Source of the DNA: an uncultured bacterium
GTDB taxonomy: Bacteria; Auribacterota; JACPWU01
Assembly (NCBI GenBank): GCA_964640155.1
Contig: CAZXEQ010000001.1
Span: 79,156 to 111,155, forward strand
Length of the DNA stretch: 32,000 nucleotides
Direction of reading: 5' to 3'
The notes under the pieces: model-generated
Seen by the model: the letters and a program-made list of their open reading frames with translations, nothing else
What the model was told of the DNA's origin: nothing
The model's database searches: none
Shown: positions 1 through 30,960 of the stretch, piece after piece
Layout of the letters: every line of letters begins with the position of its first letter
Numbering within the stretch: position 1 is the first letter of the stretch
Position numbers and translations under genes: made by a program

Positions 1-925
1 AATTTTTGGTATTCAACTCCTTCAAAAAGCCTTCGATCTTGGAATCAATTTTTTTGATACCGCAGATACCTATGGCAATGGGTATGGCGAAACCATTTTA
101 GCCAAAGCCCTTAAAAGCAAGCGTGACAAACTTGTTATCGCTACTAAATTTGGCTATGACATTTACAGTCCTCCACCTGAAAAACGAGGACATCAAGAAC
201 TACCTCAAAAATGGGATGCTGAGCATATTCGCTTTGCCTGTGAACAAAGTCTTAAACGTCTTGAAACAGATGTTATCGACCTTTATCAACTTCACAATCC
301 CAGAATTGATACTTTAAAAAAAGACGAAATATTTAATACTTTAGAATCTCTAAAAAAAGAGGGAAAAATCAGATCCTATGGAGTCGCGTTGGGACCGGCT
401 ATCGCAGAAAGACAAATTGAAGAAAGTCTTTATTCTATTCAAATCCGCAAAGTTCATGGAACTCAAATCATCTACAATCTTCTTGAACAAATGATTGGAG
501 AAAAGATTTTTTCAGCAGCCCGCGCAGAAAACTCAAGTGTCCTTGTCCGTGTCCCCCATGCATCAGGTCTGTTAGAAGGCGTATACACACAAGATACCAC
601 CTTCACGGAAAATGATCATCGCTTTCATCGCATCTCAACAGATGAGAAGAAAAAATTGTGGCTTGATGATGGTCTCAAAAAAGTGGAACAGCTTCAATGG
701 CTTGTAAATGATAAACGTACTTTGGGACAAATGGCCATTCAATTTATTTTATCAGAGCCTTCTATTGCTTGCGTATTTCCTAATATTTATGATTTGAAAC
801 AATTAGAAGAATTCGCAAAAGCTCCAGATACTCCCACACTCACTCAAAATGAAATTTCTAAAATCCAATCACTTTACAAAAGCAACTTTGGCCTACAAGC
901 ACCTCAACCTGCTGTTAAAGCATAA
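1..925 (+). CDS. aldo/keto reductase family oxidoreductase (5' end outside window)
   Basis: The frame starting at nt 2 is open to TAA 923-925. The translation IFGIQLLQKAFDLGINFFDTADTYGNGYGETILAKAL...TDVIDLYQLHNP...GKIRSYGVALGP carries typical AKR signatures. The ORF track shows only the part after an internal Met (389-925). Confidence 0.85.
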   Translation, partial: IFGIQLLQKAFDLGINFFDTADTYGNGYGETILAKALKSKRDKLVIATKFGYDIYSPPPEKRGHQELPQKWDAEHIRFACEQSLKRLETDVIDLYQLHNPRIDTLKKDEIFNTLESLKKEGKIRSYGVALGPAIAERQIEESLYSIQIRKVHGTQIIYNLLEQMIGEKIFSAARAENSSVLVRVPHASGLLEGVYTQDTTFTENDHRFHRISTDEKKKLWLDDGLKKVEQLQWLVNDKRTLGQMAIQFILSEPSIACVFPNIYDLKQLEEFAKAPDTPTLTQNEISKIQSLYKSNFGLQAPQPAVKA

Positions 926-931
926 GTTCTA

Positions 932-1141
932 ATGAAACCTTGCTGCGGAAAAGAAATCAAACGTTCTATCAAGAAACATCGGGATGTAGCTACCTGCGAT
1001 CAATGTAAGTCCCTCATTTTGGCTTACGGAGATGAAGCAGACTTTCAAAAAATGCTTCAGGGATTGGAAAAAAGCAAAATCTCTTTTGAAACTGGAGTTT
1101 CTGGCAAGTTAAAAATTGTTATCAAGCATTTAGTTAAATAA
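932..1141 (+). CDS. hypothetical small Cys-containing protein (69 aa)
   Basis: ATG lies 6 nt after the AKR stop, with no clear Shine-Dalgarno, so translational coupling is possible. It has CC-x16-C-x2-C cysteines and no family I recognise. It ends 11 nt from the convergent stop of the giant gene. Confidence 0.4.
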   Translation: MKPCCGKEIKRSIKKHRDVATCDQCKSLILAYGDEADFQKMLQGLEKSKISFETGVSGKLKIVIKHLVK

Positions 1142-1152
1142 ACAAAAATGAA

Positions 1153-4100
1153 TCAAGCTGCAGCATTAAAAGACTCCGATCTTTCTACAATCACTTGTTT
1201 TCTTTGAACATTGGGCAACTCTCTCAGCGACTTTTGCCCTCTATCAATCTGTCTTTTCCTTGAACGTCGTATTTGTGTACCAACAGCTTCTTCTCTTTCT
1301 CCCAATTCACGAGCAATACGATTGACCCATCCTTGAAAAATCTCCTCTTCGAAAGGTTTTTCCTCTTCACTCATTTGATCGAGGCTCTCAGCAATTCTCA
1401 TAATCGCTAATTCTAATTTTCCTTCTCGGAAAAGTTTTTCCACTTCGGCTTCTAAAGTCACTGTTGCTAAATCCTGTTGCTGTTGCCTTTGTCTTAGTGC
1501 TACCAAGCCAAAAACAATGGTTAAAGCTGGAGGTAGAATCATTCTTCTTGGCGCACCGCTATCAGACACTGTAAGACGAATATCTGGCGCATTATAATAC
1601 CTGGTTCCGATTGAGTTATCTCCTGTAGAAGAAGCCTCTACGGCTCCTGGAACAGAAGGCAAAGCTAAAAGCCCTATCACTCTTTCATAAAGACTACCTG
1701 TCCATCGTCGGACCTCTAAGACTTCACCCCTCTCATCCCTAACATTTGGATGTAGAGAAATAGCATCTCTTAAGGCCACCAATGCTATTAAAAAATCTCT
1801 TCGAACAATCACCTGATTCCCTGATAACTGTACATCCTCTAAATCCAGACTGTCAGAGAAAACCAAGCGTCCCTCACGATAAAGGGTCAATATTTGAGTT
1901 TTTCTTTCAGGGGAAAGATAACGCCCCCAAAATTCTATTAAATAATGATCTACAACATCGATATGAGAAGGTTCTGAAGCCTGATACTCAGAACTAGAAA
2001 TATAAAAATCGCCGGCTCTCCAATGTGCAATTCGCTGCTGACGCGCAACATCAGCCACCCCTTGCAACCTCTCTCTTGTAATGATGTCTGATGACAATTG
2101 AATAAATCTTAAAATTTCATAAGGTTTTAAAGCCAAATAATTTGCAACTTGTACTCTTTGTTCTATTTGTTCATACGTTTCTTGGAATGTTGAGTTAGAT
2201 GGAAAAGTACATTGCCCAAACAAAAGCCTAATAGGCTCTAAAAGTACATTTAACTCTCTTTGCGTTCTGTCTCTAACCTTTTGTATTTGATCTGCAGGTA
2301 AGTCCTGTCCCAAATCCAAAAAGGTTCTCTCCTCTTCAATAACCTGTCTTGCAGTTTGAAGCAAAGCTGTAAAAACACGTTCAATCGGTCGATGACCCAA
2401 GACCTCTTGTTGACCACTATTTTGATCGAAAGGAGCTCTTTCGGAATAAATCCTTTGAAGATTCATTCTCGAAAAAGCTATTTCAGGAGTGATAAGCTCA
2501 CTTACATCTCCTTTCCCCCTAACAAAACTAGCTTCGGAAACAATCATTTCACTCAGAGCAATCATAATATCTGTTTCACCAATGCCCATTTGACGTAACG
2601 CTTGAAGATAATTTTCTGTATCAAAACCCTGAGCAGGAATAATCTCTAAAGCAATCGGCATAAGGATTGCTAGAAGCTCAGCTCTTGTTTCCAGAAAATC
2701 CTGCCAATGCAAAATGAGATAAATAGAAAACACCCGAAAAGCGTTTTCTTGACCCAAAATCTGACGGATTTCTTGAGGTGTTTTTTCTCCCAAATCTCCA
2801 AAAACTTGGTCAAAAACATAATTTCTAAAATGAAAAGAACCATACAAACTTGCAGAAACAAAAATTTGAAGCTTAAGGTTCACCGATAAACTTGGAAAAA
2901 TTTCTTGAATGATTCTTTCCAATCTTTCTCTTGTTGCTGCATCTAAAGAAAGGTTTAGAGCCTGCGATATTAATGAAATATAAAAAGCCTTTTCATTATC
3001 ACTAAGACTACCTCTTCGAATAGACACTTCTGCCTCCGTTAAGATTTGAGTAACAGCTTCTTGTGATGCAAACCCTCCTAATCCCATAGCTAGATTTAAA
3101 AGATTTTGAGCAGCTGAGCGATAATAACTATCGTGATAGCTCACGGGTGTATACGGAATATCTATATTGCAAAGTCGAACGGGATGATACCGACGTTGAT
3201 AACGCTGAAAAAGAGCTCTTATTTGTGTTAAATCTCCAGAGGCAATCACTCTGCGGGCATGAAACAGCTCAATATTACTCAAACCTGTCGAGATCTCACC
3301 GAATTCACGCATCACTGTCTGAGGGTCGTCAGAACGAGCAGCCCATATACCCGGCAAAGTTATTTGTCTTACAGGATGATTCTGTAAATATTCTAAAAAT
3401 CTTTCCCCCACTTCATAAAAATTGTCACTGGGGATAGCGGCTTGATGATATAGTCCAAACACTTTTAAAAGAAAATCCAATTCAGAAGAAGCCCCATGAT
3501 CCCTTAATTCCTGATCAATATTTCTAAAATCAGGGTCCATTGCTAAAATATCCTCAGCAATCATCACCGATAGAACTGGGATCAGCACGCTTTCAACAGC
3601 ATCAACTACTCCTGCCCTGTAAAAAAAATTTTGATAAAAAGCCAATGCCTCTATAATATTTTGAGGTCTTAGATTTCTGCGCTCTTCTCGAACGAGATCT
3701 ACCACAAAAGACCGTGCAGCTACTTTAGCTTCTTCTGAAATCGGAGCTCTATTTACCTCAAATAAAAAACTCTGAAAACGACTCATTTGAACTCTTAAAT
3801 TATCCCCTTGTCCAGAATCTGTTCGTCGAGACATAGACAGAAAAATCCTTCGAGTATCATCAAAATATCTCTGCCGTTTTTGAGGATCCGCCAAAAGCCT
3901 CATAGGTAACCGCATCAAATCACCTTCAAGACTATCCCTTCGCATCACTGCAAGAAGCCGCTCTTGAATAGGAATATCAGTTAATGGACCATTCACTTGT
4001 TGTTGAATCACTTGAACACGTGGCCTTCCCATCAAAGGGCGAACATGTTGATTCATAAATAAAACCCAAGGGTCGTTGGTCGTAACCACTCCATTCAATT

Positions 4101-7100
4101 GAAGATAATTGAGAAAACTTCCATTGAATCCAATAATGCTTTGTCGTGGTTCATCTGGTGTATATCCACGGTCTGGAGTGAAGGATGGGTTACGACGATG
4201 CCATTCCTGCGCAATCACTTCATTACTTCCCCAAATTAAAAGCCCTAAACCTTGTCGGAGTTGTTCTGCATGAGGTGAGGCTGGAACACGAGCAGGATCC
4301 GCAAAAACATAATACCAATCATCAGGATACTGAGCTTGCAATCGAATAAGTTCTTGAAAAAAATAGCGCTGCCGAGAAAAAAAATTTAAGAAGCTGCCCA
4401 TCATCCGAAGCTCCTCCGAAGTAAAAGAAGATAAATCTCCAAAATGAAGCGGAGCATAAATGTTATTTAAATATTCTGCCGTAATTATTGCTGGAGTAGG
4501 ATCATAATTACCTCCATACCCTCCTCTGGATCTCGCCCTAGCTACCTGTGCTTGATATTGAGCTTGAGGACTATCTTCTCTTCTCCAGCGATCTTCTATC
4601 CCCTCTAGTTGAATCCACAAAGTAGACCTTTGAACAGGTGTCAATCCTTGTGAAAATTGATCAAATGCCGTGTTTGCAATTTCTTGGTTTAAACCCCAGC
4701 GTCTGCTTTCTCGAATCAAATAAGCTCTAAACGCATCTCCATTTCCAACATCCACGACTTTTCCATCCGCAAGCTTTTGAGCTGCCATCAAAGCCACACG
4801 TCCAAACAAGTCATGAATCATTCTTTCATTTTCTTCTCCCAAAGCGCCAATATCAGTTAAAAGACCTAAAGCAACATCATTGACCATTTGAAACATATCC
4901 TCTATAAGTCGAAAATCAATGGTTCTATCTACATTTTCATAAGCTCCCACAGCTCTTGAAGCAATTTCCAGTTTCTGAGATATATAAATATCTGTTCTTC
5001 TCAACAAAGTCCTCAAAGAATAGATTTGCCTTAAATCTTCTGGATAATCTGAATCTGAATAAAGAGGGGCTTGGTTAGAAGATTCATTCGATTGCCCTGC
5101 TGTTCTATCTGGCCTGGCGGCTTGGTCTCTTTCGTGATGTTGTCGAATTACACTTTCCTGAAAAACTTGTAAGCGTCGATCTCCTTGTCGAACAAATGTG
5201 GTAGGATCCCTGTTCACCCATCCGCGCCCTCCTCTAGGATTCATGGTTTGACAAATAGCATGAAGCTCTGAAATATCAATCCAGCGACTGCTATTCACAT
5301 CAATTGCCCCATGAACAAGTCGGGCTGGAATTCCTACATATCTTAAAAGAAGCATTTCATACATCGCTAAAACAGCACAAGCAGCTTTGATCTTCTTCCT
5401 GCGCCTAAAAGATTCTTCTTCAAACCCATGATCCAACCAATGTTCAGGAGGAACTGCAAACATTCGTGCAGCATCTTCATCCAACCCATATTCAAATCGA
5501 TCTTGCATAATTTGCTCTACACCTGTGAGTCGAAGGTCATAATCGTCCAACATTCTCAAAGCATCGAGCCGAGCTCTTAAGGTCGGAGGAATGTTTCTTT
5601 CACTCTCAGGAAGTTGTGTATAGTGGGCTATAAATTCTGATGAAGGGGTAAAAGGTACCGGTTGAAACTCATCGAGATGATAAGAAACAATATTATATCC
5701 TACGGGAAGATGAAAACCTTGTAAACGCAAAGTAGCATCTCCGTAAGAATTTGGCACGAGATTAAATCCTTCTGTTCGACCATTGACACGAATACTTGAA
5801 GGGTCAACACGAGAATGAGATGTTCTAAAAAGGCTTATTTCTGAGCCCTGAAAATACATAGTCACTGTCACTCCCTCACCCATTCTTGTTTCAGATAAGG
5901 GAGCATCTGGGAAATCAAGTACTTCCTGAACAACTGCTCCATTAGAATGAACACTCGAATAAGTCCCCAAAGAATAAAATCCTCCGCCTCGACTCAATTG
6001 AGCCAACCAGACGCCTCTCTCACGCAAACGTCCATTTTCAAAAGCACTGTCCGGTTCTGACAATGTATTAGGTCTAAATTCTCTCATTCCAGAAAGCGTT
6101 TGAAGATAACGCGCCCCTCTTTCCACATTATGAAAAAATAAAGAAGCTCTTCTAGAAACTCCAGCCATCATCTCTAATCTTCTAAAACCTCTCACAAAAG
6201 AAGGAACCCAAAAAAGTGTTTGGGCTGGAACTGTTTCTACGGTTTGACGAAGACGAACGCTTGACTGAGCAACAGATGCAGCTTGATCTCTGATCACATG
6301 AACAATGGTTTCAGAATGAAGTCCAAAACTTGAAAATACGATATATAAAACAATCCCCCATCTTAATATCCTAAAAATAAGCCTTTCTTTTAAAGAAGTT
6401 AAAAAGCTAACCCAAGGTCTGGCTACAGTTGTTTTAGATTCTTTAATTTCAAATTTTTCTAAGATTGCTTTTTCTTCAGTCTGTACAGGAGGCGCTTTTA
6501 AGGTTTCCAATGTCTTTTGACTTTGATCTAACAGAACTTTGTGAATTTTGGTTTCAAGATCTTCTAATTCTCCAATAACATCTCTTGATCGGTAAGATTC
6601 TAATCTTTCAATTTTCTTCTTTCTTTGATTCATTTGTCCTACTTTTTCTTTCAATTGATCTAGCTCTTCTGCCAACCTTCTTTCCTCCAAAGCATCACGC
6701 TCAATTGAAAAAGAATTGCTTCTAATTTTTTCAAGTAGGTTTTTTTTCAGTTCTTCTGCGCTTCCTTCACCCTCAATTAATCCTTCTGCATTTTCTTCAA
6801 TTCCAATCAACCTTTGATATTTCTGATGTAATTGAACATTTTCTCTTTCCTTACGAGCAATATCCACCCGTATCTTTTCTAAATCCCCCTCTAGTTTTTT
6901 TTGCTTCAATAACAGGTCTTCGACTCTTGCCTCTCCGAATATATTTTGCAGCTCTTCTTTTAATCGAATTATTTCTCCTTCAAAACGCCAAGGAGGTGCA
7001 TCTCTTGGCGTTTGAGTCATGGTAACTTCTGAAGTAGGAAGCAGACTTTGAATATGTTCAGTCCTTCGATAGATTCGATCATTTCGAAGCGTTCCTTTCT

Positions 7101-10100
7101 CCTTCTCTCTCAAACGTAATTCCAGTACATCTGCGAGAAAAATTCCTGCTTCCTTTTGAGTTTCAGGATTTAAAGTTGGGAAAATCTCTACTAATTCTTG
7201 AGCAATTAAAATTAAAGGAACAACTTCAACCTCACCATTTTCATAAATACGCTGCATATCATATCCATTCACAACAACTCTTATGAGTGGAGATTCTTTT
7301 TGAGAATCAATAATTTTAAGTCCCTTGGCCAAAAGCTTTCTTAAACTAAACGTAAGAAGCGAATCCTCAACTTGTTTTGATTGAGTCTTTTCTTCAAATG
7401 CAATTCCATGTTCTTGAGGTCCCGTTCGAAGAAGAGCTATCAGAAACTCTAGAGTCTGTTCTTCCAAAGTTTCTCCCTGTACATCCTTTCGAGACAGGCC
7501 AAATGTTTTTTCTCCAGAAACGTTTTTGGGAAAAGCAAATTGAAGAAAATTTTTCAAATCAAGAGGAACGGTATAAATCTCATAAATAGAAGAGCTTTTT
7601 TTTCCTTCAGCAATATCATAAGCCTCTTGAATGGTTCTTTCCGCTTGATGATAGCGAGAACGCCCCTTAATAACATGCCGACTTCCTAGCGAAATAAATT
7701 CAAATACAACTCCGGGAAAATCATTTGTTATTCGAATATCTATAGATTCTATACCTGCAACACTGATCTGATAGTGGATCAAGAAATAAGCCAGACGCAA
7801 GGACTGTAAATATTGATCCAAAGCCTGAATCTTTTTGAACAGGTCATTTTTAGTCTTATCATTCGCGCTTATTGACAAATTCTGAAGTTTTTTTCGAATT
7901 ATTAAGATTTTTAAGATTTCAGAAGGATAATCAATATTCTGAGCAGTTAAACTTCTGGCCCCCTCTTTTAGAAAAATAGAATCAACACCTATTTCATCTA
8001 ATGAAATTTTTTCTTTCGTGGCACTTTTATACGAAATTAATAAATTCTCTGAAGAACTCTGTCCGTCTTCAGAATCATCATCTAAAACAACTCTTTCTCG
8101 AAGAAAAACAGCCTCAGTCGATTTTAGATTTGACGACTTGCCTCTGACAACTTGAGCTACCTGCCCCTTCTGATTTCGTTTCAAGAAAAAAATATTCTTT
8201 CCCTCCCATACATCTAAAGGATTTCGTGAAATCTTCGGACTGACAATCACAGCGGGGGAAAACAGATTATAGGAGGCTAAAAATGATACCAACTGTTCTT
8301 CTTGAGCTGTCAGCGCGCTTAAACTTTCAAAAGGATTTAAGGATATTTCTGTTTGATCCTCAGAAATAGGCACAGATAATGTTTTTTCCTCTTCTATTTC
8401 TAAAGCTCTTTGTCTTCTTAGATTTTTAAATTTTACAAAGAGAGTTTTTCCTGTTTTTTTAAGAGTTGACCCAACCCATTTAAAAATAACAAAAACATTA
8501 AATAGAACAAAGGGAGCAATCAATAAAGTTAAAAAAGGCAAACCTAAATAGATAGAAAGAAGAGAAGCAGCATTTAAAACAATATAAAAATCTACAGCAA
8601 AACCAACCATCTTTTGTACTTTTTTAGGCAATTTTCGATAAAGGGGTGTTAAAAAAAATTCAGAAGCAATTCCCAGAAGAACAAGGGTTAATGCAGCACT
8701 CATTGTAAAATGAGCTCCGATGAGGCAAATAAAAACAACAAAAGGAAGAACAAGATAATACAAAAGCGTTTGGCTAACTCTACCTAAAATATGAAAGGCT
8801 CGACGCAAAAATCCTTTTTTTACCTCTTCCTTCTCAGTCTTCTTAAAATACCACCGACCAAATTTGACAATACCTGACTCTTCACCCCAGCGTCTGGCCA
8901 CAGCTGCCACAACTAAACGCCCTGCTGTTTTCATATTTGGATTAAATCGATCCCATTGCAAGGTGCAGTTTTTATGTTTAGAAATGACTTCCACCAAAAT
9001 TCTTCCTTCTTTATCATCTAAATCTCTTAGTATATCCCTATGTTTCTTAAACCATCGATTGACGATTTGATGTACTGTTTTTTGATCGGCCTTACTTAAA
9101 ACATCGATCAATTCTTTAAGCAATGGCTTTAATATATGCCCTTCATCCAATTCCAACTGCTCATGAATTTCTCGCTCCATCGCACTCACTGGAGAAAGCA
9201 TTTTTTTGATAGGATCAGAACTCGGTCGTAGCAAAAGTCTATCTTTGGAGAACTCTTCCCCATGAATCTCATCCCATTGTGTTTTCATCACAAAGTCGTA
9301 ACGTTTAAATCCCAACTCCCCACGAATTTCAGGCGTACAAGCAATATAAGAAATCTTTTTCTTCTCCAAAATTTTCTGAATACCCTCGGTATGAAAACCT
9401 CCGGTGATCAACACAGTCACCGGTCCCCTGTCTCCAGTCTCCAGCAAATCACTATTTTGGGTTTTCTGACTAGGAACTCGCGACTGACGACTGGTGACCA
9501 TTAACGCTTTTTCAGCCATCACTTCATCACGTTTCAGAGCAAACTCATAAAATTTTAGAGCTTCTCTCATGCAATCATCAAATTGATGAATTATTTGAGA
9601 ATTCTCTAGATTTAAATCTTGTACATTATATTTTTGAGATAAAGCCTGCATCGTTATTGCTCTTGATTGCGTATTTTTAAATCCTTTTAATCCAGTTGTT
9701 TCTAACTCTCTTCGCGTCAACTCCAAACGAATTAATTTCTTAAAAATCTTCCATGTTTCATCAAAATCAGCAATGTCTTCTACTTTCTCCAATCTTGCCT
9801 GTTCATAAAGAAATCCTTGAACAAAAGATATTAATTCATTCCACAAAACATCAAAATCAAACTTCTTCTCTTTTTGGCTAATGCTAAGCCACGTTTGTAA
9901 TTGAGGATATTCCTTCTGGAATAAATCTTTTTGAACACTATTTTCTTTTTCATAATTCTGTTTTAATTGAGCCAAGTATTCATCTGCCTTAATATGACCT
10001 AATCGATATTCCAATGTTATTTTCACAATTTCTTTGAATGCATTAGGCGATAATCTTGTCTGAAGATCTTTGATAAGTTGATCTAATTGTGTTTGTGCCT

Positions 10101-10893
10101 CCTTAGAATCAAATGCATTGGTTTCCTGAAAAAAAGTCAGAAAATCTTTCAAACTCGAGGTTTTAGCTAAAAGATGGGGGTGAGATTTAAAAATAAATTC
10201 TAATTCTTTCACCCATTCTTGCCATTTCGGAGAGTTTGAGTGTAAAGATTTGGAAAACTGATCTATTCTTTTTAAATCACTTGAGTAAGCTTTGTCTTTC
10301 AAACTCTGAAGCCAAGCATCAATCGCTGACACACCTTCTTTTAAACTCTCTGCATATTTTCGACAAAGATGAAACGCTTTAAAATTTTCAGAATAAAGAT
10401 GGGGCTCCTCAACTCCATAAAGAGAAGTTTCGTTTTTAAGTCCCATCACAATCTTAGAAAACTCTGCTCCTGTAAGAAGCCCTTGCCTAAGAAATTTTCG
10501 TGCTACTTGCGTCCTCGCGTCTTTATCTGGGAAAATTTCATAAAGAAGAGTTTGTACGGGTCCAGATGCCCCCTCCACTAAAACCTGATCAAGTAAATTC
10601 TCACGGGCAAGCTGCTCTAATGTAATTGCAATCCTCTCCTGAGCCTGTGCCTGACAATGAATATCTCTGATAAGGACCCAAAGTACAGGCCCTTTCCCAT
10701 TAAAAACCTTATTGATTTTCATACCTCTCAAAGCAAGAGAATCAGGCGAAATCTCTGCTATTGGAACAATACGAATCTGGGCAGATGGAATTAGATCTGC
10801 TTTCGCATGGGAAAACGACTCAAGATTCAAAGAATCTAGACCGATGAAACACGAGAGGACTATGGCTATTAATTTGACAATGATTTTTCTCAA
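1153..10893 (-). CDS. giant (3,246 aa) multi-pass membrane protein with transglutaminase-like cysteine protease core, coiled coil and large unassigned regions
   Basis: Uninterrupted 9,741-nt ORF in an AT-rich background. TTG start at 10891-10893 (weak GAGA 5 nt upstream) gives a signal/anchor-like N-terminus, MRKIIVKLIAIVLSCFIGL...HAKA|DL. An in-frame transglutaminase-like motif is present (see sub-features). I checked residue numbering against the DNA at four codons. Confidence 0.85.
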   Translation of the reverse strand: MRKIIVKLIAIVLSCFIGLDSLNLESFSHAKADLIPSAQIRIVPIAEISPDSLALRGMKINKVFNGKGPVLWVLIRDIHCQAQAQERIAITLEQLARENLLDQVLVEGASGPVQTLLYEIFPDKDARTQVARKFLRQGLLTGAEFSKIVMGLKNETSLYGVEEPHLYSENFKAFHLCRKYAESLKEGVSAIDAWLQSLKDKAYSSDLKRIDQFSKSLHSNSPKWQEWVKELEFIFKSHPHLLAKTSSLKDFLTFFQETNAFDSKEAQTQLDQLIKDLQTRLSPNAFKEIVKITLEYRLGHIKADEYLAQLKQNYEKENSVQKDLFQKEYPQLQTWLSISQKEKKFDFDVLWNELISFVQGFLYEQARLEKVEDIADFDETWKIFKKLIRLELTRRELETTGLKGFKNTQSRAITMQALSQKYNVQDLNLENSQIIHQFDDCMREALKFYEFALKRDEVMAEKALMVTSRQSRVPSQKTQNSDLLETGDRGPVTVLITGGFHTEGIQKILEKKKISYIACTPEIRGELGFKRYDFVMKTQWDEIHGEEFSKDRLLLRPSSDPIKKMLSPVSAMEREIHEQLELDEGHILKPLLKELIDVLSKADQKTVHQIVNRWFKKHRDILRDLDDKEGRILVEVISKHKNCTLQWDRFNPNMKTAGRLVVAAVARRWGEESGIVKFGRWYFKKTEKEEVKKGFLRRAFHILGRVSQTLLYYLVLPFVVFICLIGAHFTMSAALTLVLLGIASEFFLTPLYRKLPKKVQKMVGFAVDFYIVLNAASLLSIYLGLPFLTLLIAPFVLFNVFVIFKWVGSTLKKTGKTLFVKFKNLRRQRALEIEEEKTLSVPISEDQTEISLNPFESLSALTAQEEQLVSFLASYNLFSPAVIVSPKISRNPLDVWEGKNIFFLKRNQKGQVAQVVRGKSSNLKSTEAVFLRERVVLDDDSEDGQSSSENLLISYKSATKEKISLDEIGVDSIFLKEGARSLTAQNIDYPSEILKILIIRKKLQNLSISANDKTKNDLFKKIQALDQYLQSLRLAYFLIHYQISVAGIESIDIRITNDFPGVVFEFISLGSRHVIKGRSRYHQAERTIQEAYDIAEGKKSSSIYEIYTVPLDLKNFLQFAFPKNVSGEKTFGLSRKDVQGETLEEQTLEFLIALLRTGPQEHGIAFEEKTQSKQVEDSLLTFSLRKLLAKGLKIIDSQKESPLIRVVVNGYDMQRIYENGEVEVVPLILIAQELVEIFPTLNPETQKEAGIFLADVLELRLREKEKGTLRNDRIYRRTEHIQSLLPTSEVTMTQTPRDAPPWRFEGEIIRLKEELQNIFGEARVEDLLLKQKKLEGDLEKIRVDIARKERENVQLHQKYQRLIGIEENAEGLIEGEGSAEELKKNLLEKIRSNSFSIERDALEERRLAEELDQLKEKVGQMNQRKKKIERLESYRSRDVIGELEDLETKIHKVLLDQSQKTLETLKAPPVQTEEKAILEKFEIKESKTTVARPWVSFLTSLKERLIFRILRWGIVLYIVFSSFGLHSETIVHVIRDQAASVAQSSVRLRQTVETVPAQTLFWVPSFVRGFRRLEMMAGVSRRASLFFHNVERGARYLQTLSGMREFRPNTLSEPDSAFENGRLRERGVWLAQLSRGGGFYSLGTYSSVHSNGAVVQEVLDFPDAPLSETRMGEGVTVTMYFQGSEISLFRTSHSRVDPSSIRVNGRTEGFNLVPNSYGDATLRLQGFHLPVGYNIVSYHLDEFQPVPFTPSSEFIAHYTQLPESERNIPPTLRARLDALRMLDDYDLRLTGVEQIMQDRFEYGLDEDAARMFAVPPEHWLDHGFEEESFRRRKKIKAACAVLAMYEMLLLRYVGIPARLVHGAIDVNSSRWIDISELHAICQTMNPRGGRGWVNRDPTTFVRQGDRRLQVFQESVIRQHHERDQAARPDRTAGQSNESSNQAPLYSDSDYPEDLRQIYSLRTLLRRTDIYISQKLEIASRAVGAYENVDRTIDFRLIEDMFQMVNDVALGLLTDIGALGEENERMIHDLFGRVALMAAQKLADGKVVDVGNGDAFRAYLIRESRRWGLNQEIANTAFDQFSQGLTPVQRSTLWIQLEGIEDRWRREDSPQAQYQAQVARARSRGGYGGNYDPTPAIITAEYLNNIYAPLHFGDLSSFTSEELRMMGSFLNFFSRQRYFFQELIRLQAQYPDDWYYVFADPARVPASPHAEQLRQGLGLLIWGSNEVIAQEWHRRNPSFTPDRGYTPDEPRQSIIGFNGSFLNYLQLNGVVTTNDPWVLFMNQHVRPLMGRPRVQVIQQQVNGPLTDIPIQERLLAVMRRDSLEGDLMRLPMRLLADPQKRQRYFDDTRRIFLSMSRRTDSGQGDNLRVQMSRFQSFLFEVNRAPISEEAKVAARSFVVDLVREERRNLRPQNIIEALAFYQNFFYRAGVVDAVESVLIPVLSVMIAEDILAMDPDFRNIDQELRDHGASSELDFLLKVFGLYHQAAIPSDNFYEVGERFLEYLQNHPVRQITLPGIWAARSDDPQTVMREFGEISTGLSNIELFHARRVIASGDLTQIRALFQRYQRRYHPVRLCNIDIPYTPVSYHDSYYRSAAQNLLNLAMGLGGFASQEAVTQILTEAEVSIRRGSLSDNEKAFYISLISQALNLSLDAATRERLERIIQEIFPSLSVNLKLQIFVSASLYGSFHFRNYVFDQVFGDLGEKTPQEIRQILGQENAFRVFSIYLILHWQDFLETRAELLAILMPIALEIIPAQGFDTENYLQALRQMGIGETDIMIALSEMIVSEASFVRGKGDVSELITPEIAFSRMNLQRIYSERAPFDQNSGQQEVLGHRPIERVFTALLQTARQVIEEERTFLDLGQDLPADQIQKVRDRTQRELNVLLEPIRLLFGQCTFPSNSTFQETYEQIEQRVQVANYLALKPYEILRFIQLSSDIITRERLQGVADVARQQRIAHWRAGDFYISSSEYQASEPSHIDVVDHYLIEFWGRYLSPERKTQILTLYREGRLVFSDSLDLEDVQLSGNQVIVRRDFLIALVALRDAISLHPNVRDERGEVLEVRRWTGSLYERVIGLLALPSVPGAVEASSTGDNSIGTRYYNAPDIRLTVSDSGAPRRMILPPALTIVFGLVALRQRQQQQDLATVTLEAEVEKLFREGKLELAIMRIAESLDQMSEEEKPFEEEIFQGWVNRIARELGEREEAVGTQIRRSRKRQIDRGQKSLRELPNVQRKQVIVERSESFNAAA
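1492..1548 (-). other. C-terminal transmembrane helix of giant protein (aa ~3116-3134), followed by a charged tail
   Basis: RRMILPPALTIVFGLVALRQRQQQQ, then an E/R/K-rich helical tail of ~110 aa. Confidence 0.6.
5194..5421 (-). other. transglutaminase-like core (Cys1839 / His1878 / Asp1896)
   Basis: KIKAACAVLAMYEMLLLRYVGIPARLVHGAIDV...ISELHAICQTMNPRGGRGWVNRDPT matches the classic pattern C-x-x-(F/L)A ... GIPAR-V-G ... H-A ... GW...DPT. Codons confirmed on the DNA: Cys 5377-5379, His 5260-5262, Asp 5206-5208. A beta-rich segment precedes it (aa ~1650-1750). Confidence 0.75.
6316..6387 (-). other. internal transmembrane helix (aa ~1503-1526) separating the Lys-rich and Arg-rich halves
   Basis: ERLIFRILRWGIVLYIVFSSFGLHS. 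Basic residues are concentrated on the N-terminal flank. Confidence 0.65.
6424..6996 (-). other. charged coiled-coil segment (aa ~1300-1490)
   Basis: Long E/K/L/Q-rich heptad-like sequence, for example LKEELQNIFGEARVEDLLLKQKKLEGDLEKIRVDIARKERENVQLHQKYQ...LDQLKEKVGQMNQRKKKIERLE. Confidence 0.6.
8470..8781 (-). other. cluster of about four transmembrane helices (aa ~705-808)
   Basis: Hydrophobic runs are LLYYLVLPFVVFICLIGAHF, MSAALTLVLLGIASEFFLTPLY, VGFAVDFYIVLNAASLLSIYLGL and PFLTLLIAPFVLFNVFVIFKWV. K/R-rich stretches flank the cluster on both sides. Confidence 0.7.
9334..10716 (-). other. possible Tiki/TraB/ChaN-superfamily-like domain with a large helical insert (aa ~60-520)
   Basis: Motif-level only. 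VLWVLIRDIHCQAQAQERIAITLEQL...DQVLVEGA (His79, Glu107) and VTVLITGGFHTEGIQKILEKK (His501) resemble the two His-containing motifs plus the acidic residue of that superfamily. The first motif lacks the usual Gly. Confidence 0.25.
10798..10893 (-). other. N-terminal signal peptide or signal anchor of giant protein (aa 1-32)
   Basis: Positive n-region (MRK), hydrophobic core IIVKLIAIVLSCFIGL, and an AKA-D AxA-like site. Confidence 0.6.
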
Positions 10894-11098: not shown

Positions 11099-11335
11099 AT
11101 GACAATACGAGTGAGAGAAGAAAACCATGAAGTAAAGCATGTCTTGATCGAATTATCAGAAGCGGTTAGTACATTTTCCGTCGAGGTCGAACCAGGACTT
11201 ATCTATCATTACGACGAACAGCTGAACCCTACACAAATTGAGGTTAAAGATACAGCTCTAATTGAACCTTTTCTTAAAGGTTTACAGGAAGTTCTTAAAG
11301 ATCCAAACGTCAAAATCATTCGTAAAGCTGCTTAA
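11099..11335 (+). CDS. hypothetical small protein (78 aa), possibly DUF2283-like
   Basis: Good RBS (GAGGTG, 8-nt spacer) and a plausible promoter. The family guess rests only on size and the beta-rich ...GLIYHYDEQLNPTQIEVKD segment. Confidence 0.5.
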   Translation: MTIRVREENHEVKHVLIELSEAVSTFSVEVEPGLIYHYDEQLNPTQIEVKDTALIEPFLKGLQEVLKDPNVKIIRKAA

Positions 11336-16700: not shown

Positions 16701-19130
16701 TCAAAATTTAAATTTTTTCCTGACACCAAACATTTGTTCACTTTCATCCATTCTAAAAAGGAAATCCTGATTAGGCTGAAGTTCATATTCTAATTGAAAC
16801 TGCGCACCTGGAGAATGCTCATCCATAGAATCTTCATCTAAACTTCCACTGGCTTTCACACCCACGGCCATACGTTTATCAATTTTTTTCATCAATGTTA
16901 ATTCCTGTAAATCTTCATCCTGACGAAGCTCAAAACCTTTTAGGCCCATATGATGAGGATCCATATTAAATCTTACATGTTTAAATGGTTTTCTCCCTTT
17001 TAAATCAATCGAACCGGAAACAAGCCACTGACCAGGATCAGTGATCACCACAGAATTTTTAAGATCAACCGTTTTTCCAAACCCTGAAAGACTAAAAGAA
17101 GCCTCTTTAAATTTAAGATCGAAGAACTGTCCATGGGCAAAATCTACTTTTCCTTCCCAATGAGGATAATCCATAGCCCCTTTCAAAGAAATTTTACCAT
17201 TCATGACACCTTGGAGATAGGGAGCCTTGTGCCGGGGGAAAAAGACACCTAGTCGAGATAAATCTGCATTTAAAATAGTCCAAGTCAAATCCAAGGTGTT
17301 ATCTCTAAAACGATAATATCCTTCCAAAAAATATTCTTGTCCCAATCTCATATCTTTAAAATAAAACTCTTGTTGAGTTGAATCAAAAGAAAAGTCTCCT
17401 TGTCCATCCGGGAAAGAAACTTCATTGATTTTTAATTCAGTTAAAGCTAAGTGGCCTTCTAAAGAAAACTTATTTTCAAAAATTTGGAAGATCCCAATCA
17501 AATCTAAATGAGCATCTAGCACAAATGCCCCTAGTTTAAAATGTCGCAGATGAAACACCATATTCCATTTTCCATGAATTTGATGATCCCCTTCCTCTTT
17601 AAATGCAATTGTGCTTTGAAACAAAATACTTTTCTTCCACCGAAGTGATCCTGTGATTATCTTTTCAATACCATCTTTCCACCAAAACAAACCCTGAACT
17701 TTAGGCCTATATGCCCAAATTTTTAGAATGGATAAATTCTGCGTCAACGCAGTTCTAAAATTGATTTTATTATTTTTAAAATTCAACACTCCTCCGCTTT
17801 GAAGTAAAGACCTTCTTAAACTACCAAAAAACTCACTACTCCAATTAGAAACAAACTCAGCTTGTTTTACTCCACTAGAATTTTCAGATAAAATGGAAGA
17901 GCTTTTTAAGTTAAAAATAAGTTTTGGAAGTAATTGTAAAAAACCGTTTAAGCGGATTCGATCCATGAGAATCATTTCTTGTAAAAAAATCCCTTCTTTC
18001 ACAACAAGAGCATCTCCCTTTAAATTTAAAGGAAAAGACTGCTGATGAAGAAATAAATCTCCTTCTAAACCTTTCAAGGAAAGACCACCTCGATCCCATG
18101 AAATCTTTTTCGTTTTTAACACCCATTTCAATGAACTTAAAATGGAAGGGACTCGATCTGGAAAGCCTCTGAAAGTCCCCTTAAGAATAGGATTTTCGAG
18201 AGGTCCTTTAAGGTATGTATGGAAAACTCCGTCCTCGGCCTGGCACATCGCTTGAGCATTAATAAATCTGTCATTTTCTTTCTTTTTCAAAGAAGCACTT
18301 GCAATAACAATCGCTCCTTCTTCAATCCATTGCAAATGAGTCAGACGCCATTGCCCCTTACGAAATAAAATATTTAAATTGATGGAAGCTTCTTTTTGAG
18401 ATGGATAGATAACTTTGACATTCTCTAAATTGAAATGGGCTTCCTGAAGAACTTTATTTTTGAAAACGATTTTTCCCTCAACAGAACCGTCCAGAAATTT
18501 AAAACCAGAAATAACCCGATTGAGTTGTAACAAAGAAAAGTCTGTAATCACAAAACGTAATTCATCATCCTGTCGAGTCACGAAAATTTGATTGTGATGA
18601 CCTTTCATAGGAGTGCGCGCCATAATGCGCCAGCTCGTTCCTTTACCTTCAGGCAAGACTTCGAAAGACATTTGTTTAATGTACAACATGGCATTTCTCA
18701 AATCACTCGACAAAACTTTATTCCACAATAACCTTAAGGGATCATCAGAACCTCTAGAAAGATGGGGAGTGAATTTTAAAAGCTCAGAAAGATGTTTTAA
18801 ATGTACAAAAGTTGATTTTAAAAAAATAGGTTCGTAAAAATCTCTCTTAAAGAAATCCCCCAAACGATATTCTGTAGAAATCTCCTGAACCTTAAGAAAA
18901 TTAAAAAGAGAAGAGTGATTGGCTTTTAGTTCAACTTGTTTTAACTGTAAGCCTTCAATGAGCCCTCCCTCTAATTGATTAACATCAACATTCAAAGGAA
19001 GAATCTCAGATAATTTATACGAGAGAATGGTGCGTCCTAGACTTGTCCAAAGAGGAGCAAAAAAATGACTTTGAGTCGTCATTCCAATCGCAAAAGGGAT
19101 AAAAATATAGAAAAAATATCTCTTCTTCAC
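16701..19130 (-). CDS. large envelope protein (809 aa), putative AsmA/TamB-like
   Basis: A single N-terminal TM is followed by long beta-rich, repetitive amphipathic sequence of the kind seen in AsmA/TamB-family proteins. The C-terminus ends ...FGVRKKFKF (terminal aromatic). It is first in the apparent operon with mlaEFD. The functional call is tentative. GTG start with GGGGG RBS. Confidence 0.5.
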   Translation of the reverse strand: MKKRYFFYIFIPFAIGMTTQSHFFAPLWTSLGRTILSYKLSEILPLNVDVNQLEGGLIEGLQLKQVELKANHSSLFNFLKVQEISTEYRLGDFFKRDFYEPIFLKSTFVHLKHLSELLKFTPHLSRGSDDPLRLLWNKVLSSDLRNAMLYIKQMSFEVLPEGKGTSWRIMARTPMKGHHNQIFVTRQDDELRFVITDFSLLQLNRVISGFKFLDGSVEGKIVFKNKVLQEAHFNLENVKVIYPSQKEASINLNILFRKGQWRLTHLQWIEEGAIVIASASLKKKENDRFINAQAMCQAEDGVFHTYLKGPLENPILKGTFRGFPDRVPSILSSLKWVLKTKKISWDRGGLSLKGLEGDLFLHQQSFPLNLKGDALVVKEGIFLQEMILMDRIRLNGFLQLLPKLIFNLKSSSILSENSSGVKQAEFVSNWSSEFFGSLRRSLLQSGGVLNFKNNKINFRTALTQNLSILKIWAYRPKVQGLFWWKDGIEKIITGSLRWKKSILFQSTIAFKEEGDHQIHGKWNMVFHLRHFKLGAFVLDAHLDLIGIFQIFENKFSLEGHLALTELKINEVSFPDGQGDFSFDSTQQEFYFKDMRLGQEYFLEGYYRFRDNTLDLTWTILNADLSRLGVFFPRHKAPYLQGVMNGKISLKGAMDYPHWEGKVDFAHGQFFDLKFKEASFSLSGFGKTVDLKNSVVITDPGQWLVSGSIDLKGRKPFKHVRFNMDPHHMGLKGFELRQDEDLQELTLMKKIDKRMAVGVKASGSLDEDSMDEHSPGAQFQLEYELQPNQDFLFRMDESEQMFGVRKKFKF

Positions 19131-19241: not shown

Positions 19242-21671
19242 TCAAACCCAAGAAAACGTGAGATGGTCGCCTTCAAGAGCTACATTTAATTTTTGTCCTA
19301 CCGTCATCTTCTTCTTAAGGAGCTCTTCAGAAACGGGATCCTCGATAAATTTTTGAATCGCCCGTCTTAAAGGTCTTGCGCCATAGACGGGATCATAACC
19401 TTTATTGATGAGAAAGTCTTTTGCTTGATCCGTTAAATCAATATCATAACCTTTGAGAATCAAACGATCTCGCACTTTTTGTAATTCAAGATCTATAATT
19501 TTTGCAAGATCCTCTTTCACCAGTGAATGAAAAACAATGACTTCATCAATACGATTCAAGAATTCTGGTTTCAAAGTCTTTTTCAACTCTCCCATTAATT
19601 TATCTTGAATATCATCATAAGTAGAAGCAGATGATTCTTCATGAAACCCAACCGAAGTACGTTTCTTAATCAGTTCAGCACCAATGTTAGATGTCATAAT
19701 CAAAATGGTATTTCTAAAATCAACCACACGACCAAAACTATCTGTTAATTTGCCTTCTTCTAAAATTTGCAAAAGCACATTAATCACATCGGGATGAGCT
19801 TTTTCCATTTCATCAAAAAGAACAACAGAGTAAGGTTTTCGGCGAACCTGTTCAGTGAGTTGACCTCCCTCTTCATAGCCCACATAGCCCGGAGGAGAAC
19901 CTGTTAAACGAGAAACAGCAAATTTCTCCATATATTCAGACATATCAATTTGAATCATAGATTCTGAATCATCAAAAATATATTCAGCCAAAGCTTTCGC
20001 CAAAAGCGTTTTTCCAACACCCGTAGGACCTAGGAAAATAAAAGAACCAATAGGCCGTTTGGGATCTTTCAAATCTGCTCGAGATCTACGAACTGCCCTA
20101 CAAACAGCTCTAACAGCTTCATTTTGACCCACCATCAGCTTGTGAATCCCCTCTTCCATATTAAGTAGTTTCTCAGTTTCTACTTGCTCAATACGAGCCG
20201 TGGGAATCCCTGTCCATTTGGAAACAATTTGAGCAATATCTTCTTCTGTCACCATTACTTTATGTTCGCTTTTTTGTGTTTTCCAATCCGTCAAAGCTTC
20301 TTCTAATTTAAAACGCATCATACGTTCTTCATCGCGAAAGCGAGCAGCTTTTTCAAAATCTTGTTCTCGAACAGAAGCTTCTTTTTTATTCTTAACTTTC
20401 TTCATTTCTTCTTTAATGCCTTTAATAGAGCCAGGCTCTGTGACAGCATGTATTCTTGCTTTTGCAGCTGCTTCATCAATTAAATCAATGGCTTTATCGG
20501 GCAAAAAACGACCTGTGACATAACGATCTGAAAGGCGAACAGACGCTTCAAGCGCAGCATCTGTAATCACGGCCTTATGATAAGACTCATATTTATGTCT
20601 TAGGCCTTTTAAAATTTCGATGGTTTCAGTCAAAGAAGGAGGATCTACCATCACAGTTTGAAAGCGTCGTTCTAAAGCAGAATCTTTTTCAATGTATTTA
20701 CGATATTCATTCAAAGTCGTTGCGCCCACGCATTGAAGCTCTCCTCTGGCAAGAGCAGGTTTTAAAATATTGGAGGCATCAATCGCTCCTTCTGCAGCAC
20801 CTGCTCCTACAATCGTATGAAGTTCATCAATAAAAAGAATAATATTCTGGGAATTCTTAATTTCCTTCATCACAGCCTTAATGCGTTCTTCGAATTGCCC
20901 ACGATACTTGGTTCCTGCAACCATCAAAGCAAGATCCAATGTAATGAGACGTTTATCTAAAAGATTTTCTGGGACATCTCCAGAAATAATTTTCTGTGCC
21001 AGCCCTTCTACAATGGCTGTTTTGCCCACACCTGCTTCACCTAAAAGAACAGGATTATTCTTTCTGCGGCGGCAAAGAATTTGAATCACACGCTCAATTT
21101 CACCTGCACGACCAATCACCGGATCCAATTTATCTTCTTTAGCTAATTCTGTTAAATCGCGTCCAAATGCAGTGAGCGCAGGACTACGAGAACCTTCTTC
21201 AACATTTTCTGGAATTTCTCCCTTACCCGAAAATTCTGTTCCTAATTCCTTGAGCACTTCGGCTCGAGCAGCTTCAATATCAACATTCAAACTTTGTAAA
21301 ATTTTTGCCGCAACCCCTTCCCCTTCGCGAAGAAGACCCAAAAGCAAATGCTCTGTGCCGATATAGGTATGACTTAATTTTTTAGCTTCATCTAAAGCTA
21401 ATTCAATCACTCGTTTTGCACGAGCAGTTAAAGGAATATCTCCAATCATTTTAGTTTCCGGTCCGGTGCCCACAGCTCTTTCTACTTCCATACGAACTGT
21501 TTCAAAATCTAATCCCATTTTTCTCAAGACATTAACAGCTACACCTTCACCAAGCTTGATTAAACCCAGCAAAATATGTTCTGTGCCGATATAGTTATGA
21601 TTAAACCGATCGGCTTCTTTGCGCGCTAGAATAATGACTTGTCGTGCACGATCCGTAAATTTTTCGAACAT
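19242..21671 (-). CDS. clpC: ATP-dependent Clp protease ATP-binding subunit ClpC
   Basis: Double Clp_N repeat, two AAA+ modules ([16 protein letters not shown]), and a UVR-like linker ([14 protein letters not shown]). RBS GAGGAG. Confidence 0.95.
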
Positions 21672-21712
21672 AATTTTTCTCCTCAGACTTCACTAAATCA
21701 TTTACTAACATT

Positions 21713-21740
21713 ATGATAGCACATCAGTTAGGAAATGCAA
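21713..21740 (-). promoter_or_regulatory. candidate clpC promoter
   Basis: On the minus strand, TTGCAT (21740-21735), a 16-nt spacer ending in TGc, then TATCAT (21718-21713). Confidence 0.4.
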
Positions 21741-21779
21741 CACGGCCTAAAAACTATTCACTAGCCCCTAACCCCTGTT

Positions 21780-22844: not shown

Positions 22845-23341
22845 TTCTTATATCTCTTCGCTTCTTTCATTGCACTAATTTGATCCCGCAACCGGGCTGC
22901 TTCCTCAAAAGCTTCAGAGTGAATCGCTTTTTCCAATTCAATCTCTAAATCTTTAACATTTTTTTGGGCTGATTCTCGCTTTAACCATTTCTTTGGGATT
23001 TTTCCTACATGCTTTGATGTTTTATGAATCGTTTCAAAAAGATGCGTCAGCATCGCCCCAAAAGTTGTAAAACATTCTGCACAACCAAATCGTCCCACTT
23101 CTTTGAACTCACGATATTGCATCCCACATTCAGCACATTCTAAATCATCCGAAATTTTTTGTCCGCCTTCTAAATCCGCTAAACCAGCCAAAAGATCTGC
23201 TACAGAAAATTTAGAATAAACATCAATTCCCTTTTCTTTCGCACAACCTTCACAAAGGTTTATTTTTATCATTTGATTCTTAATAACCTCGGTGTAATGA
23301 ACAGTTGCCTTCTTTTTATGGCATACTTCGCAGAGAACCAT
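22841..23341 (-). CDS. mcsA: McsA-like activator of protein arginine kinase (zinc-finger plus UVR domain)
   Basis: Four CxxC pairs (CEVC, CEGC, CAEC, CAEC) and a C-terminal UVR motif (EAFEEAARLRDQI). Confidence 0.85.
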   Translation of the reverse strand: MVLCEVCHKKKATVHYTEVIKNQMIKINLCEGCAKEKGIDVYSKFSVADLLAGLADLEGGQKISDDLECAECGMQYREFKEVGRFGCAECFTTFGAMLTHLFETIHKTSKHVGKIPKKWLKRESAQKNVKDLEIELEKAIHSEAFEEAARLRDQISAMKEAKRYKK

Positions 23342-30804: not shown

Positions 30805-30960
30805 ACCTTGAAAAAGGCAAACTGTTCGAAAGAGCAGGACGCAAAGCTTCAGGCCCTCAGAAAAGCCGTAGCTCGTGTGTCGTAAAGCGTATCTCATTGA
30901 GATACGAAGAGCGAAGTACGATTTACGATCTTTAATAGGGTAGCTGGGCTGCCAAAGGGT
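30805..30960 (+). promoter_or_regulatory. GEMM-I (c-di-GMP-I class) riboswitch aptamer
   Basis: 30816-30847 reads GGCAAA-CTGTTC-GAAA-GAGCAG-GACGCAAAGC. As I recall the V. cholerae Vc2 aptamer, it reads GGCAAA-CCAUUC-GAAA-GAGUGG-GACGCAAAGC. Junction and GNRA-loop residues are identical, and the two stem differences are compensatory. The 3' element AGGG-TAGC (30937-30944) parallels Vc2 ...GG-UAGC. In between is a long nested second helix: CCCT/AGGG, AAAG/CTTT, CGTA/TACG, TCGTA/TACGA, and CGTATCTC-att-GAGATACG at 30888-30906. Aptamer boundaries are approximate. Confidence 0.8.

Follow-up and report, generated by a model that had tools for sequence, protein, structure and literature searches.

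A giant membrane protein of an Auribacterota-like bacterium in which a probable Tiki/ChaN-type head is joined to a rare, lysine-depleted transglutaminase-like module

Membrane transglutaminases (TGases) of the TgpA type are defined by an N-terminal DUF3488 domain (PF11992) and five transmembrane (TM) helices, and the active TGase domain of TgpA lies between the fifth and sixth TM helices (PMC3507681). Archaeovorins are giant proteins of more than 30,000 amino acids (aa) with glycosyltransferase, methyltransferase, NUDIX and SecA-DEAD domains, and glycolytic-type domains have been found in their apparently extracellular parts (West-Roberts et al. 2023, bioRxiv 10.1101/2023.11.21.568195). In the TIKI superfamily, the residues His85 and Glu113 of Bcr135 and the residues Glu3900-x-His3902 and Glu3930 of RRSP have a 28-residue spacing, and RRSP has in addition Arg4001 and His4030 (PMC6254334). 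Here we describe a gene for a protein of 3,246 residues which has points of likeness to each of these systems. The gene lies in a stretch of 32,000 nucleotides (the window) of contig CAZXEQ010000001.1 from an uncultured bacterium (assembly GCA_964640155.1, positions 79,156 to 111,155 of the forward strand).

The open reading frame (ORF) is a single, genuine gene, and it encodes a modular giant protein that is anchored in the membrane of an Auribacterota-like diderm. As judged from the sequence, its product is a single genuine multi-pass membrane protein, and it fuses two units: a signal peptide with an N-terminal domain (N-domain), and a very rare TGase module, which comprises a middle region, a coiled coil, a TM segment, a β-rich segment, the TGase core, a helical scaffold of ~1,200 aa and a hydrophobic anchor (Table 1). 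We tentatively propose, with a little less than even confidence, that this protein is a membrane-tethered, two-headed protein-modifying enzyme, acting by cross-linking or as a thiol-protease, with its heads on opposite faces of the membrane.

At 38% GC, a stop-free run of 3246 codons has a chance probability of ~1e-97, which bore out the view of an initial annotation, made from the letters of the window, that a 9.7-kb open frame is not chance; the reading strand was corrected to the minus strand. The giant protein was carried with 100% identity by the 621-kb NCBI contig and by a Logan contig, with 0 mismatches over 11 kb, and these two copies are probably the same underlying data and hence not independent. 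A homologue from a different sample (P0002, 3,696 aa) was 40% identical over nearly the full length and had the same end-to-end architecture. Since P0002 came from another sample and shared synteny as well as architecture, it gave independent support for a real gene, and the recurrence of the whole architecture in this syntenic orthologue spoke against the assembly chimera which had been named earlier as a possible refutation. The NCBI protein (P0001, 3225 aa) begins at codon 22, and the hydrophobic core of the signal peptide is thereby missing from it (window 10830-10893, minus strand). Because the 21 upstream codons, which constitute the signal peptide, were conserved at the protein level in P0002 and in another orthologue (L002, a fragment at 239-5945), the annotated start at codon 22 is probably wrong. 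The AxA↓DLIP cleavage site read ACA↓DLIP in P0002 and AQA↓DLIP in L002. Upstream of the gene, four promoter-like sites were counted against 2.6±1.7 expected in shuffled sequence, and the promoter candidate proposed in the initial annotation was thus indistinguishable from chance.

Hydropathy analysis upheld the earlier outline of the protein (signal peptide, four-helix TM cluster, single TM segment, final TM segment, tail). The four-helix cluster had Lys/Arg-rich outer flanks and was kept in P0002 and L002. Hydrophobic periodicity of 3.5 residues reached its protein-wide maximum at aa 1331-1470, a heptad peak in agreement with the coiled coil predicted earlier. The segment at aa 1505-1525 kept its position in all four homologues, the giant protein included, and was weaker in the others, and the motif at aa 3117-3134 was nearly identical in P0002 (RMILPPALSIFVGLMA). 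The β-rich segment gave weak Foldseek matches to Ig-like and adhesin domains. No HExxH motif and no internal repeat was found in the giant protein, and its only Walker-A-like match (aa 913) was not conserved and is taken as chance; for the helical region, the initial annotation had likewise seen neither HExxH nor a P-loop. Scans of the whole protein and of its tiles with Pfam and NCBIfam detected nothing except Transglut_core, phmmer of the whole protein against the PDB returned chance matches to Kv channels only, and a profile search with the helical block at aa 2389-2893 against the PDB found no relevant structure. Hence about 2,500 aa could still not be assigned to a domain by these tile and helical-block searches.

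The TGase-like core was recognised from several directions. The candidate catalytic residues were Cys1839 in KAACAVLA, His1878 in ELHAICQ and Asp1896 in GWVNRDPT. In the tile scan proposed by the initial annotation, Transglut_core (PF01841) scored 23.6 bits for a 406-aa tile against a cutoff of 23.0 (20.4 bits for the whole protein), and it scored 26.7 bits in P0002 and 34.5 bits in P0053, a further homologue of 4,029 aa. The triad was invariant in an alignment of the giant protein, P0002 and P0053, and also in L002. When the TGase profile was compared with the PDB, 13 of the 13 matches were transglutaminases, the best being the bacterial protein-glutamine γ-glutamyltransferase 6g49 (E=0.021), which we take to be the periplasmic domain of TgpA. 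In these alignments the Cys fell on Cys277 of TG2 (GQCWVFA), and the His and Asp fell on HAW…vDPT of 6g49, so that the triad named earlier did align with transglutaminase residues. In an AlphaFold2 (AF2) model of the region (pLDDT 49.7), the Cys stood at a helix N-terminus and the strands after it carried or preceded the His and Asp, an order of elements in keeping with the papain-like α+β fold, and Foldseek with this low-confidence model gave a single significant match, 3isr (E=2.8e-4, 257/285 columns). These results indicated a Cys/His/Asp core that is intact at the level of sequence.

The module is rare. A phmmer search with aa 1530-2729 against 1.84 billion representative proteins returned only P0002 and P0053, and a scan of metagenome contigs for the module gave no further relatives; it is known from three other proteins, P0002, P0053 and L002. 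Three blocks of the giant protein recurred in P0053: one in the middle region (aa 973-1339), one with the β-rich segment and the TGase core (aa 1555-2008) and one in the helical region (aa 2389-2893). The N-terminal domain of P0053 was another one, and a HEAT array of ~550 aa was inserted between its TGase core and its helical block. Since P0053 carries the shared module behind a different head, the module is mobile from one head to another. P0053 also has the same ~150-aa domain at both ends (aa ~430-600 and ~3830-3990), with a HEWTEH (HExxxH) motif.

Compared to TgpA (PA2873 of Pseudomonas aeruginosa; PF11992 and PF01841), the giant protein likewise has a TGase core with a Cys/His/Asp triad and a TGase zone between the fifth and sixth TM segments, if these are counted after the signal peptide. 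However, it has 3,246 aa against 668 aa, its TM region is not homologous, and it adds a signal peptide, a Tiki/ChaN-like head, a coiled coil, a helical scaffold of 1,200 aa and a lysine-free composition. Since neither DUF3488 (PF11992) nor DUF4129 gave a match at E≤1, the protein is not of the TgpA type, in line with the initial annotation, which could not map its size and domain combination to a described family. The 3isr protein of Cytophaga hutchinsonii, deposited as a "putative cysteine protease", probably shares the combination of a β-domain and a TGase core, as far as the low-confidence model can tell. Proteins of the 3isr type are small and soluble, whereas the core described here forms part of a giant membrane protein.

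The TGase core lies in a zone (aa 1526-3116) which has 16 Lys and 156 Arg, whereas the first 1,500 residues have 137 Lys and 85 Arg (Fisher p≈1e-27). The initial annotation had described part of it as an Arg-rich helical region; arginine is indeed abundant, but lysine-free describes the region better. The GC content at third codon positions was 0.265 in the zone and 0.269 in the N-terminal half, and the other residues barely changed, which argues for selection on lysine and rules out foreign GC-rich DNA as the source. The zone begins right after the segment at aa 1505-1525 and ends at the conserved RMILPPAL… motif, and lysine comes back in the C-terminal tail. Boundaries as sharp as these speak for the two hydrophobic segments as true compartment borders. 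The same lysine switch was present in P0002 and in the L002 fragment. A general trait of exported proteins of this genome, such as alkaline adaptation, was ruled out, because the TolC-like protein and MlaD, exported and encoded nearby, have 8.2% Lys each. The lysine-free zone was absent from P0053, in which lysine content was normal, and from 50 other members of the N-domain family described below; since P0053 is not depleted, the purge is not intrinsic to the TGase module, and this explanation was rejected as well.

At the 46 positions where P0053 has Lys, the giant protein has Arg at 14 and Lys at one. In the segment enclosed by the last two hydrophobic helices, lysine has been purged through K→R replacements that keep the charge. 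The only lysines of the zone conserved between the orthologues were K1974 and K2040. TGases cross-link themselves (PMC4526674), and the purge therefore most likely stops the tethered scaffold from acting as an acyl acceptor, or limits the acceptors to these two lysines.

The N-domain of ~670 aa, which the initial annotation had left unassigned, heads at least 50 giant proteins, which form a large family, and it is probably of the Tiki/ChaN superfamily. A database search with the giant protein gave 52 proteins, all of 1,800-5,300 aa and mostly from Omnitrophota, Elusimicrobiota and Auribacterota; members other than P0002 matched over aa ~60-540 only, and nearly all of the family had signal-peptide-like N-termini. 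We define this N-domain giant-protein family as a class in the present analysis, and the giant protein belongs to it, having a signal peptide, a head with the invariant H/Q/E/Y/R/GGFH set and more than 1,000 aa. The cargo behind the head varies. PGK and FBPase follow directly after it in P0003, a complete phosphomannomutase is found in P0014, and other members carry GAPDH with TIM, PGI, aldolase, glycogen and trehalose synthases, UbiB kinases and M48 peptidases. The genome scan placed the closest relatives in metagenome-assembled genomes (MAGs) of Candidatus Auribacterota, with N-domains 68% identical and several paralogues per genome. The head of the giant protein was 65% identical to that of L002 and 47% to that of P0002, whereas its TGase region was 33% and 52% identical, respectively, suggesting that modules were recombined or shuffled among paralogues.

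The domains after the head in P0003 (aa 713-930 and 1218-1375) and P0014 (aa 1595-2317), namely PGK, a GlpX-type FBPase, a full phosphomannomutase and a PMI domain, stand in proteins with a signal peptide and without a TM segment. Such members would imply exported glycolytic-type enzymes, or else an export signal that is misunderstood.

A profile of the N-domain core alone detected stand-alone homologues (E≈1e-34), exported proteins of ~335 aa without Pfam annotation (L014 6001-7008, L016 4001-5011, L017 4001-4987 and L018 4001-4975). In every locus examined they lay directly downstream of a Fur-family regulator, with a ZIP metal transporter in between in L018. This position suggests metal or haem chemistry, by analogy with ChaN.

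In an alignment of 24 heads, His79, Gln85, Glu107, Tyr449, Arg455 and Gly498-Gly-Phe-His501 were invariant, and Asp77 and Glu162 were nearly so. The AF2 model (pLDDT 77.8, pTM 0.66) had a small α/β core split by an all-helical insertion of ~270-330 aa (aa ~170-440). The residues form the set D77-x-H79, a 28-aa step to E107, then R455 and GGFH501; the H79-E107 spacing equals that of Bcr135 and RRSP, and with the conserved Arg the head carries an active-site set of the TIKI type, 2His/2Glu (+Arg). PF04187 (ChaN, "Tiki superfamily") was the top Pfam match in 4 of the 24 heads and in 6 of 10 stand-alone homologues. Foldseek of the whole N-domain against 350,000 PDB chains was dominated by the helical insert and gave nothing at E<0.1; among its best 16 matches, at E>1, were two of the few compact, local ones, 5t09 (HopBA1, probability 0.38) and 3b55 (Bcr135), both of which are listed as TIKI folds (PMC6254334). 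Because three weak, independent lines (residue pattern, PF04187 matches and Foldseek) point the same way, we consider the N-domain likely to be a divergent member of the Tiki/ChaN superfamily. It would share with this superfamily (Tiki, TraB/PrgY, ChaN, erythromycin esterases/Bcr135, RRSP and HopBA1; PF04187, PF01963 and PF05139) the pattern [D/E]-x-H…28 aa…E…R…GxxH and a predicted parallel-β core with flanking helices, and with ChaN and Tiki the exported location. It differs in that its core is split by the helical insertion, and in serving as the constant head of giant proteins, a use without prior description.

In the mechanism that we propose, the two hydrophobic helices at the ends of the lysine-free zone would put this zone on the membrane face opposite to the N-domain, the middle region and the tail. 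The TGase-like thiol centre would be active, and on one membrane face it would modify proteins that belong to the envelope or to a partner cell. An acyl-enzyme would form on Cys1839 with protein glutamines and lead to cross-linking or deamidation; alternatively, the centre would cleave peptide or isopeptide bonds. On the exported side, the N-domain would act as a divergent Tiki/ChaN-type His/Glu hydrolase or as a metal- or haem-binding head. The lysine purge would shield the protein's own tethered scaffold, or reserve acceptance for K1974 and K2040.

Several observations weigh against this proposal. The evidence on topology contradicts itself. From the conserved signal peptide and the export of the stand-alone homologues, the head should lie outside and, by parity, the TGase zone in the cytoplasm, whereas the Lys and Arg in the 15-residue flanks, 17 on the side of the head, middle and tail and 3 on the TGase side, together with the precedent of TgpA, place the TGase zone outside. 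P0053 and other family members have the same design, in which a positively flanked hairpin comes after an exported domain, and similarly implausible localisations have been reported for giant proteins (West-Roberts et al. 2023, bioRxiv 10.1101/2023.11.21.568195). In the homologues, the hydrophobicity of the segment at aa 1505-1525 is no more than marginal. For the TGase region, the quality of the AF2 model is poor. Since the TGase-like superfamily includes proteases and inactive members, the chemistry is ambiguous. P0053 carries the same TGase module with normal lysine, which weakens the self-acceptor explanation and makes a compartment-specific cause possible. For the head, the best PF04187 matches reached 21.3 bits (E 3e-4 to 5e-4) against a curated threshold of 27.7, profile searches of PDB sequences with the N-domain, its core and the stand-alone family found no TIKI structure, and hhalign of the N-domain against a shallow E. 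coli YbaP/TraB profile was negative (probability ≤3%).

A decaying pseudogene, an assembly chimera or otherwise non-functional ORF is very improbable: the two identical assemblies may come from the same reads, but the length of the open frame, the syntenic orthologue from another sample, the invariant catalytic residues and the K→R replacement, which is residue-specific selection, all stand against it. Clearly less improbable, though still unlikely, is a self-processing polyprotein whose TGase-like domain, Tiki-like head or both cut the giant precursor into functional pieces. In its favour, 3isr, the one significant fold match, was deposited under the name "putative cysteine protease", the TIKI superfamily includes the proteases Tiki and RRSP (PMC6254334), cleavage of giant Omnitrophota proteins by an N-terminal peptidase was proposed by West-Roberts et al. 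(10.1101/2023.11.21.568195), the architecture of the family is modular and shuffled, and MARTX toxins offer a parallel in self-processing. However, no cleavage-site motifs or linkers were identified in the giant protein, the lysine purge would be left unexplained, and the two candidate protease domains are on opposite sides of membrane segments. The likeness to MARTX and polymorphic toxins is an analogy only: the N-domain family has a constant N-terminal part with variable enzymatic cargo as they do, but the TIKI-fold domain of MARTX toxins (RRSP) is cargo where the TIKI-like domain here is the constant head, and the giant protein is without RTX repeats, CPD and toxin-delivery domains.

We regard two further readings as a shade less probable than self-processing. 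One is an enlarged TgpA-like enzyme with a periplasmic TGase zone between TM5 and TM6, devoted to housekeeping cross-linking of envelope or wall, with the rest as scaffold. The match to 6g49, the order after the signal peptide of five TM segments, TGase zone and one TM segment, the positive-inside tally and a housekeeping and envelope gene context (Mla, Lol, TolC) agree with it; the missing PF11992 and DUF4129, the non-homologous TM region and fivefold larger size, a divergence far faster than that of the neighbours combined with extreme rarity, unlike an essential housekeeping enzyme, and a signal peptide that contradicts the topology it requires do not. The other is an attachment or attack machine, a small cousin of Archaeovorin-type giants, by which host or prey cells would be contacted. 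Omnitrophota and Elusimicrobiota account for most of the N-domain family, which shares with Archaeovorins the host lineages, a signal peptide and TM architecture, an unusual assortment of sugar-metabolism domains that seem to be exported and, in the HEAT array of P0053, the commonest Archaeovorin domain; multi-copy paralogy per genome and rapid divergence would fit as well. Against it, the giant protein is about ten times smaller than the Archaeovorins, which are defined by a size above 30,000 aa and by a set of domains that includes SecA-like and glycosyltransferase ones, and it is without their SecA-DEAD, glycosyltransferase, methyltransferase and NUDIX Pfam domains; no adhesin or lytic domain was found in the domain scans, and Auribacterota MAGs were interpreted as free-living fermenters (PMC9324843). 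Slightly more doubtful still is the speculation that the N-domain is the mark of a class of giants in Omnitrophota, Elusimicrobiota and Auribacterota, modular and Sec-exported "enzyme carriers" that had gone unrecognised, and that the TGase zone of the present member was deliberately lysine-proofed. The zone would then be either a covalent cross-linker whose polymerisation is restricted to the two lysines K1974 and K2040, or a module exposed inside another cell, where it would evade lysine-directed tagging such as ubiquitination, and the paired hairpins with their inverted charge bias would insert into a membrane other than the inner one of the producer. The membrane-tethered, two-headed enzyme is the reading to which we give the most weight.

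Table 1. Features of the giant gene and of its two small flanking genes (positions in the window).
Feature	Residues	Position	Strand	Basis
Giant gene, 3246 codons + stop, TTG start		1153..10893	-	ORF listing
Signal peptide (RK n-region, 12-aa h-region, AKA↓DLIP)	1-32	10798..10893	-	Hydropathy (hydrophobic aa 4-20) and conserved site
N-domain	33-700	8794..10797	-	Common to 51 other giant proteins
Four TM helices, two tight hairpins	708-728, 731-752, 762-785, 786-807	8473..8772	-	Hydropathy
Middle region without assignable domain; aa 973-1339 common to P0053	808-1300	6994..8472	-	Pfam tiles, alignment
Charged coiled-coil segment, D+E 21%, K+R 19%	~1301-1490	6424..6993	-	Heptad periodicity, composition
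Hydrophobic/TM segment, N-terminal border of lysine-free zone	1505-1525	6319..6381	-	Kyte-Doolittle 1.74
Lysine-free zone, 16 Lys vs 156 Arg	1526-3116	1546..6318	-	Composition
β-rich segment	~1611-1742	5668..6063	-	DSSP strands, low-confidence AF2 model
Transglutaminase-like core	~1750-1900	5194..5646	-	PF01841, triad, PDB profile matches, Foldseek
Catalytic codons	Cys1839, His1878, Asp1896	5377-5379, 5260-5262, 5206-5208	-	Translation
Helical lysine-free region of unassigned fold; aa 2389-2893 common to P0053	~1960-3100	1594..5016	-	
Conserved hydrophobic motif/TM (RMILPPALTIVFGLVALR), C-terminal border of lysine-free zone	3117-3134	1492..1545	-	
Charged C-terminal tail, lysine reappears	3135-3246	1156..1491	-	
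78-aa conserved gene, divergent from giant gene		11099..11335	+	82% identity, same position and orientation in L013
69-aa conserved Cys-rich gene, convergent with giant gene		932..1141	+	75% identity, same position in L013

Around the giant gene stand housekeeping and envelope genes of the kind usual in diderms (ispF, ispD, radA, mlaDFE, clpC-mcsB-mcsA, lolCD, lysS, a TolC-like gene and endonuclease V). The locus of P0002 (L013) has the same synteny, in the order mlaEFD-radA-ispD-ispF-[78 aa]-giant-[70 aa]-…-AKR. While the neighbours were 65-82% identical between the two loci, the giant protein was 40% identical, and it thus diverges much faster than its surroundings. Since both small flanking ORFs were conserved in the syntenic locus, they are real genes, and not orphans as had been thought. 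The 78-aa protein had weak similarity to DUF2283 (E=0.11), and the 69-aa protein has the pattern CC…CxxC. An apparent pseudogenisation of the AKR gene at the window edge was an artefact, as this gene merely continues beyond the window. In L013, a 1,064-aa paralogue of the N-domain family (19423-22617) stands just past the AKR gene, and a HepT/MNT toxin-antitoxin pair that does not occur in the window (17376-18204) stands between the small ORF and AKR.

Between mlaE and clpC, the window encodes an 809-aa protein (16701-19130, minus strand) that has a TM segment at its N-terminal end and matches no Pfam domain. Its sole match was a faint TamB-like one in NCBIfam, and it may work with the Mla genes in lipid transport, as a protein of the AsmA/TamB kind. 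The clpC-mcsB-mcsA genes (19242-23341, minus strand), a protein-arginine kinase system, stand in a diderm-type context with Mla, Lol and TolC. This combination at first pointed to a PVC or Chlamydiae-like lineage, a reading that gave way to Auribacterota after the genome scan. A c-di-GMP-I-GGC riboswitch (RF03167, 66 bits) was found at 30807-30957 on the plus strand, and it is followed from ~31048 by a prepilin-type (G↓YTFLEIL) DUF1559-like gene which runs past the window end. The 3' part of this gene is a 45/90-nt tandem repeat (31732-32000) that encodes acidic Gly/Ser/Asp repeats.

The folds themselves are known. In the literature searched, the architecture, the Tiki/ChaN-like common head and the lysine-free, membrane-delimited zone appear to be without description, and the TGase module and the head domain are mentioned neither by West-Roberts et al. 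nor by a 2026 Omnitrophota preprint. Giant proteins of uncultured bacteria are an open problem, and a conserved, probably catalytic head with swappable cargo provides a handle on them, the more so as its small stand-alone version in Fur/ZIP operons would lend itself to expression and study. A lysine purge over 1,600 residues, exactly between two membrane segments, is a rare and sharp signature of compartment-specific selection, and it offers a reading of topology and exposure straight from sequence, where current predictors disagree for such proteins. If the purge serves self-protection or the restriction of acceptor sites, it would represent a new design principle for tethered cross-linking enzymes.

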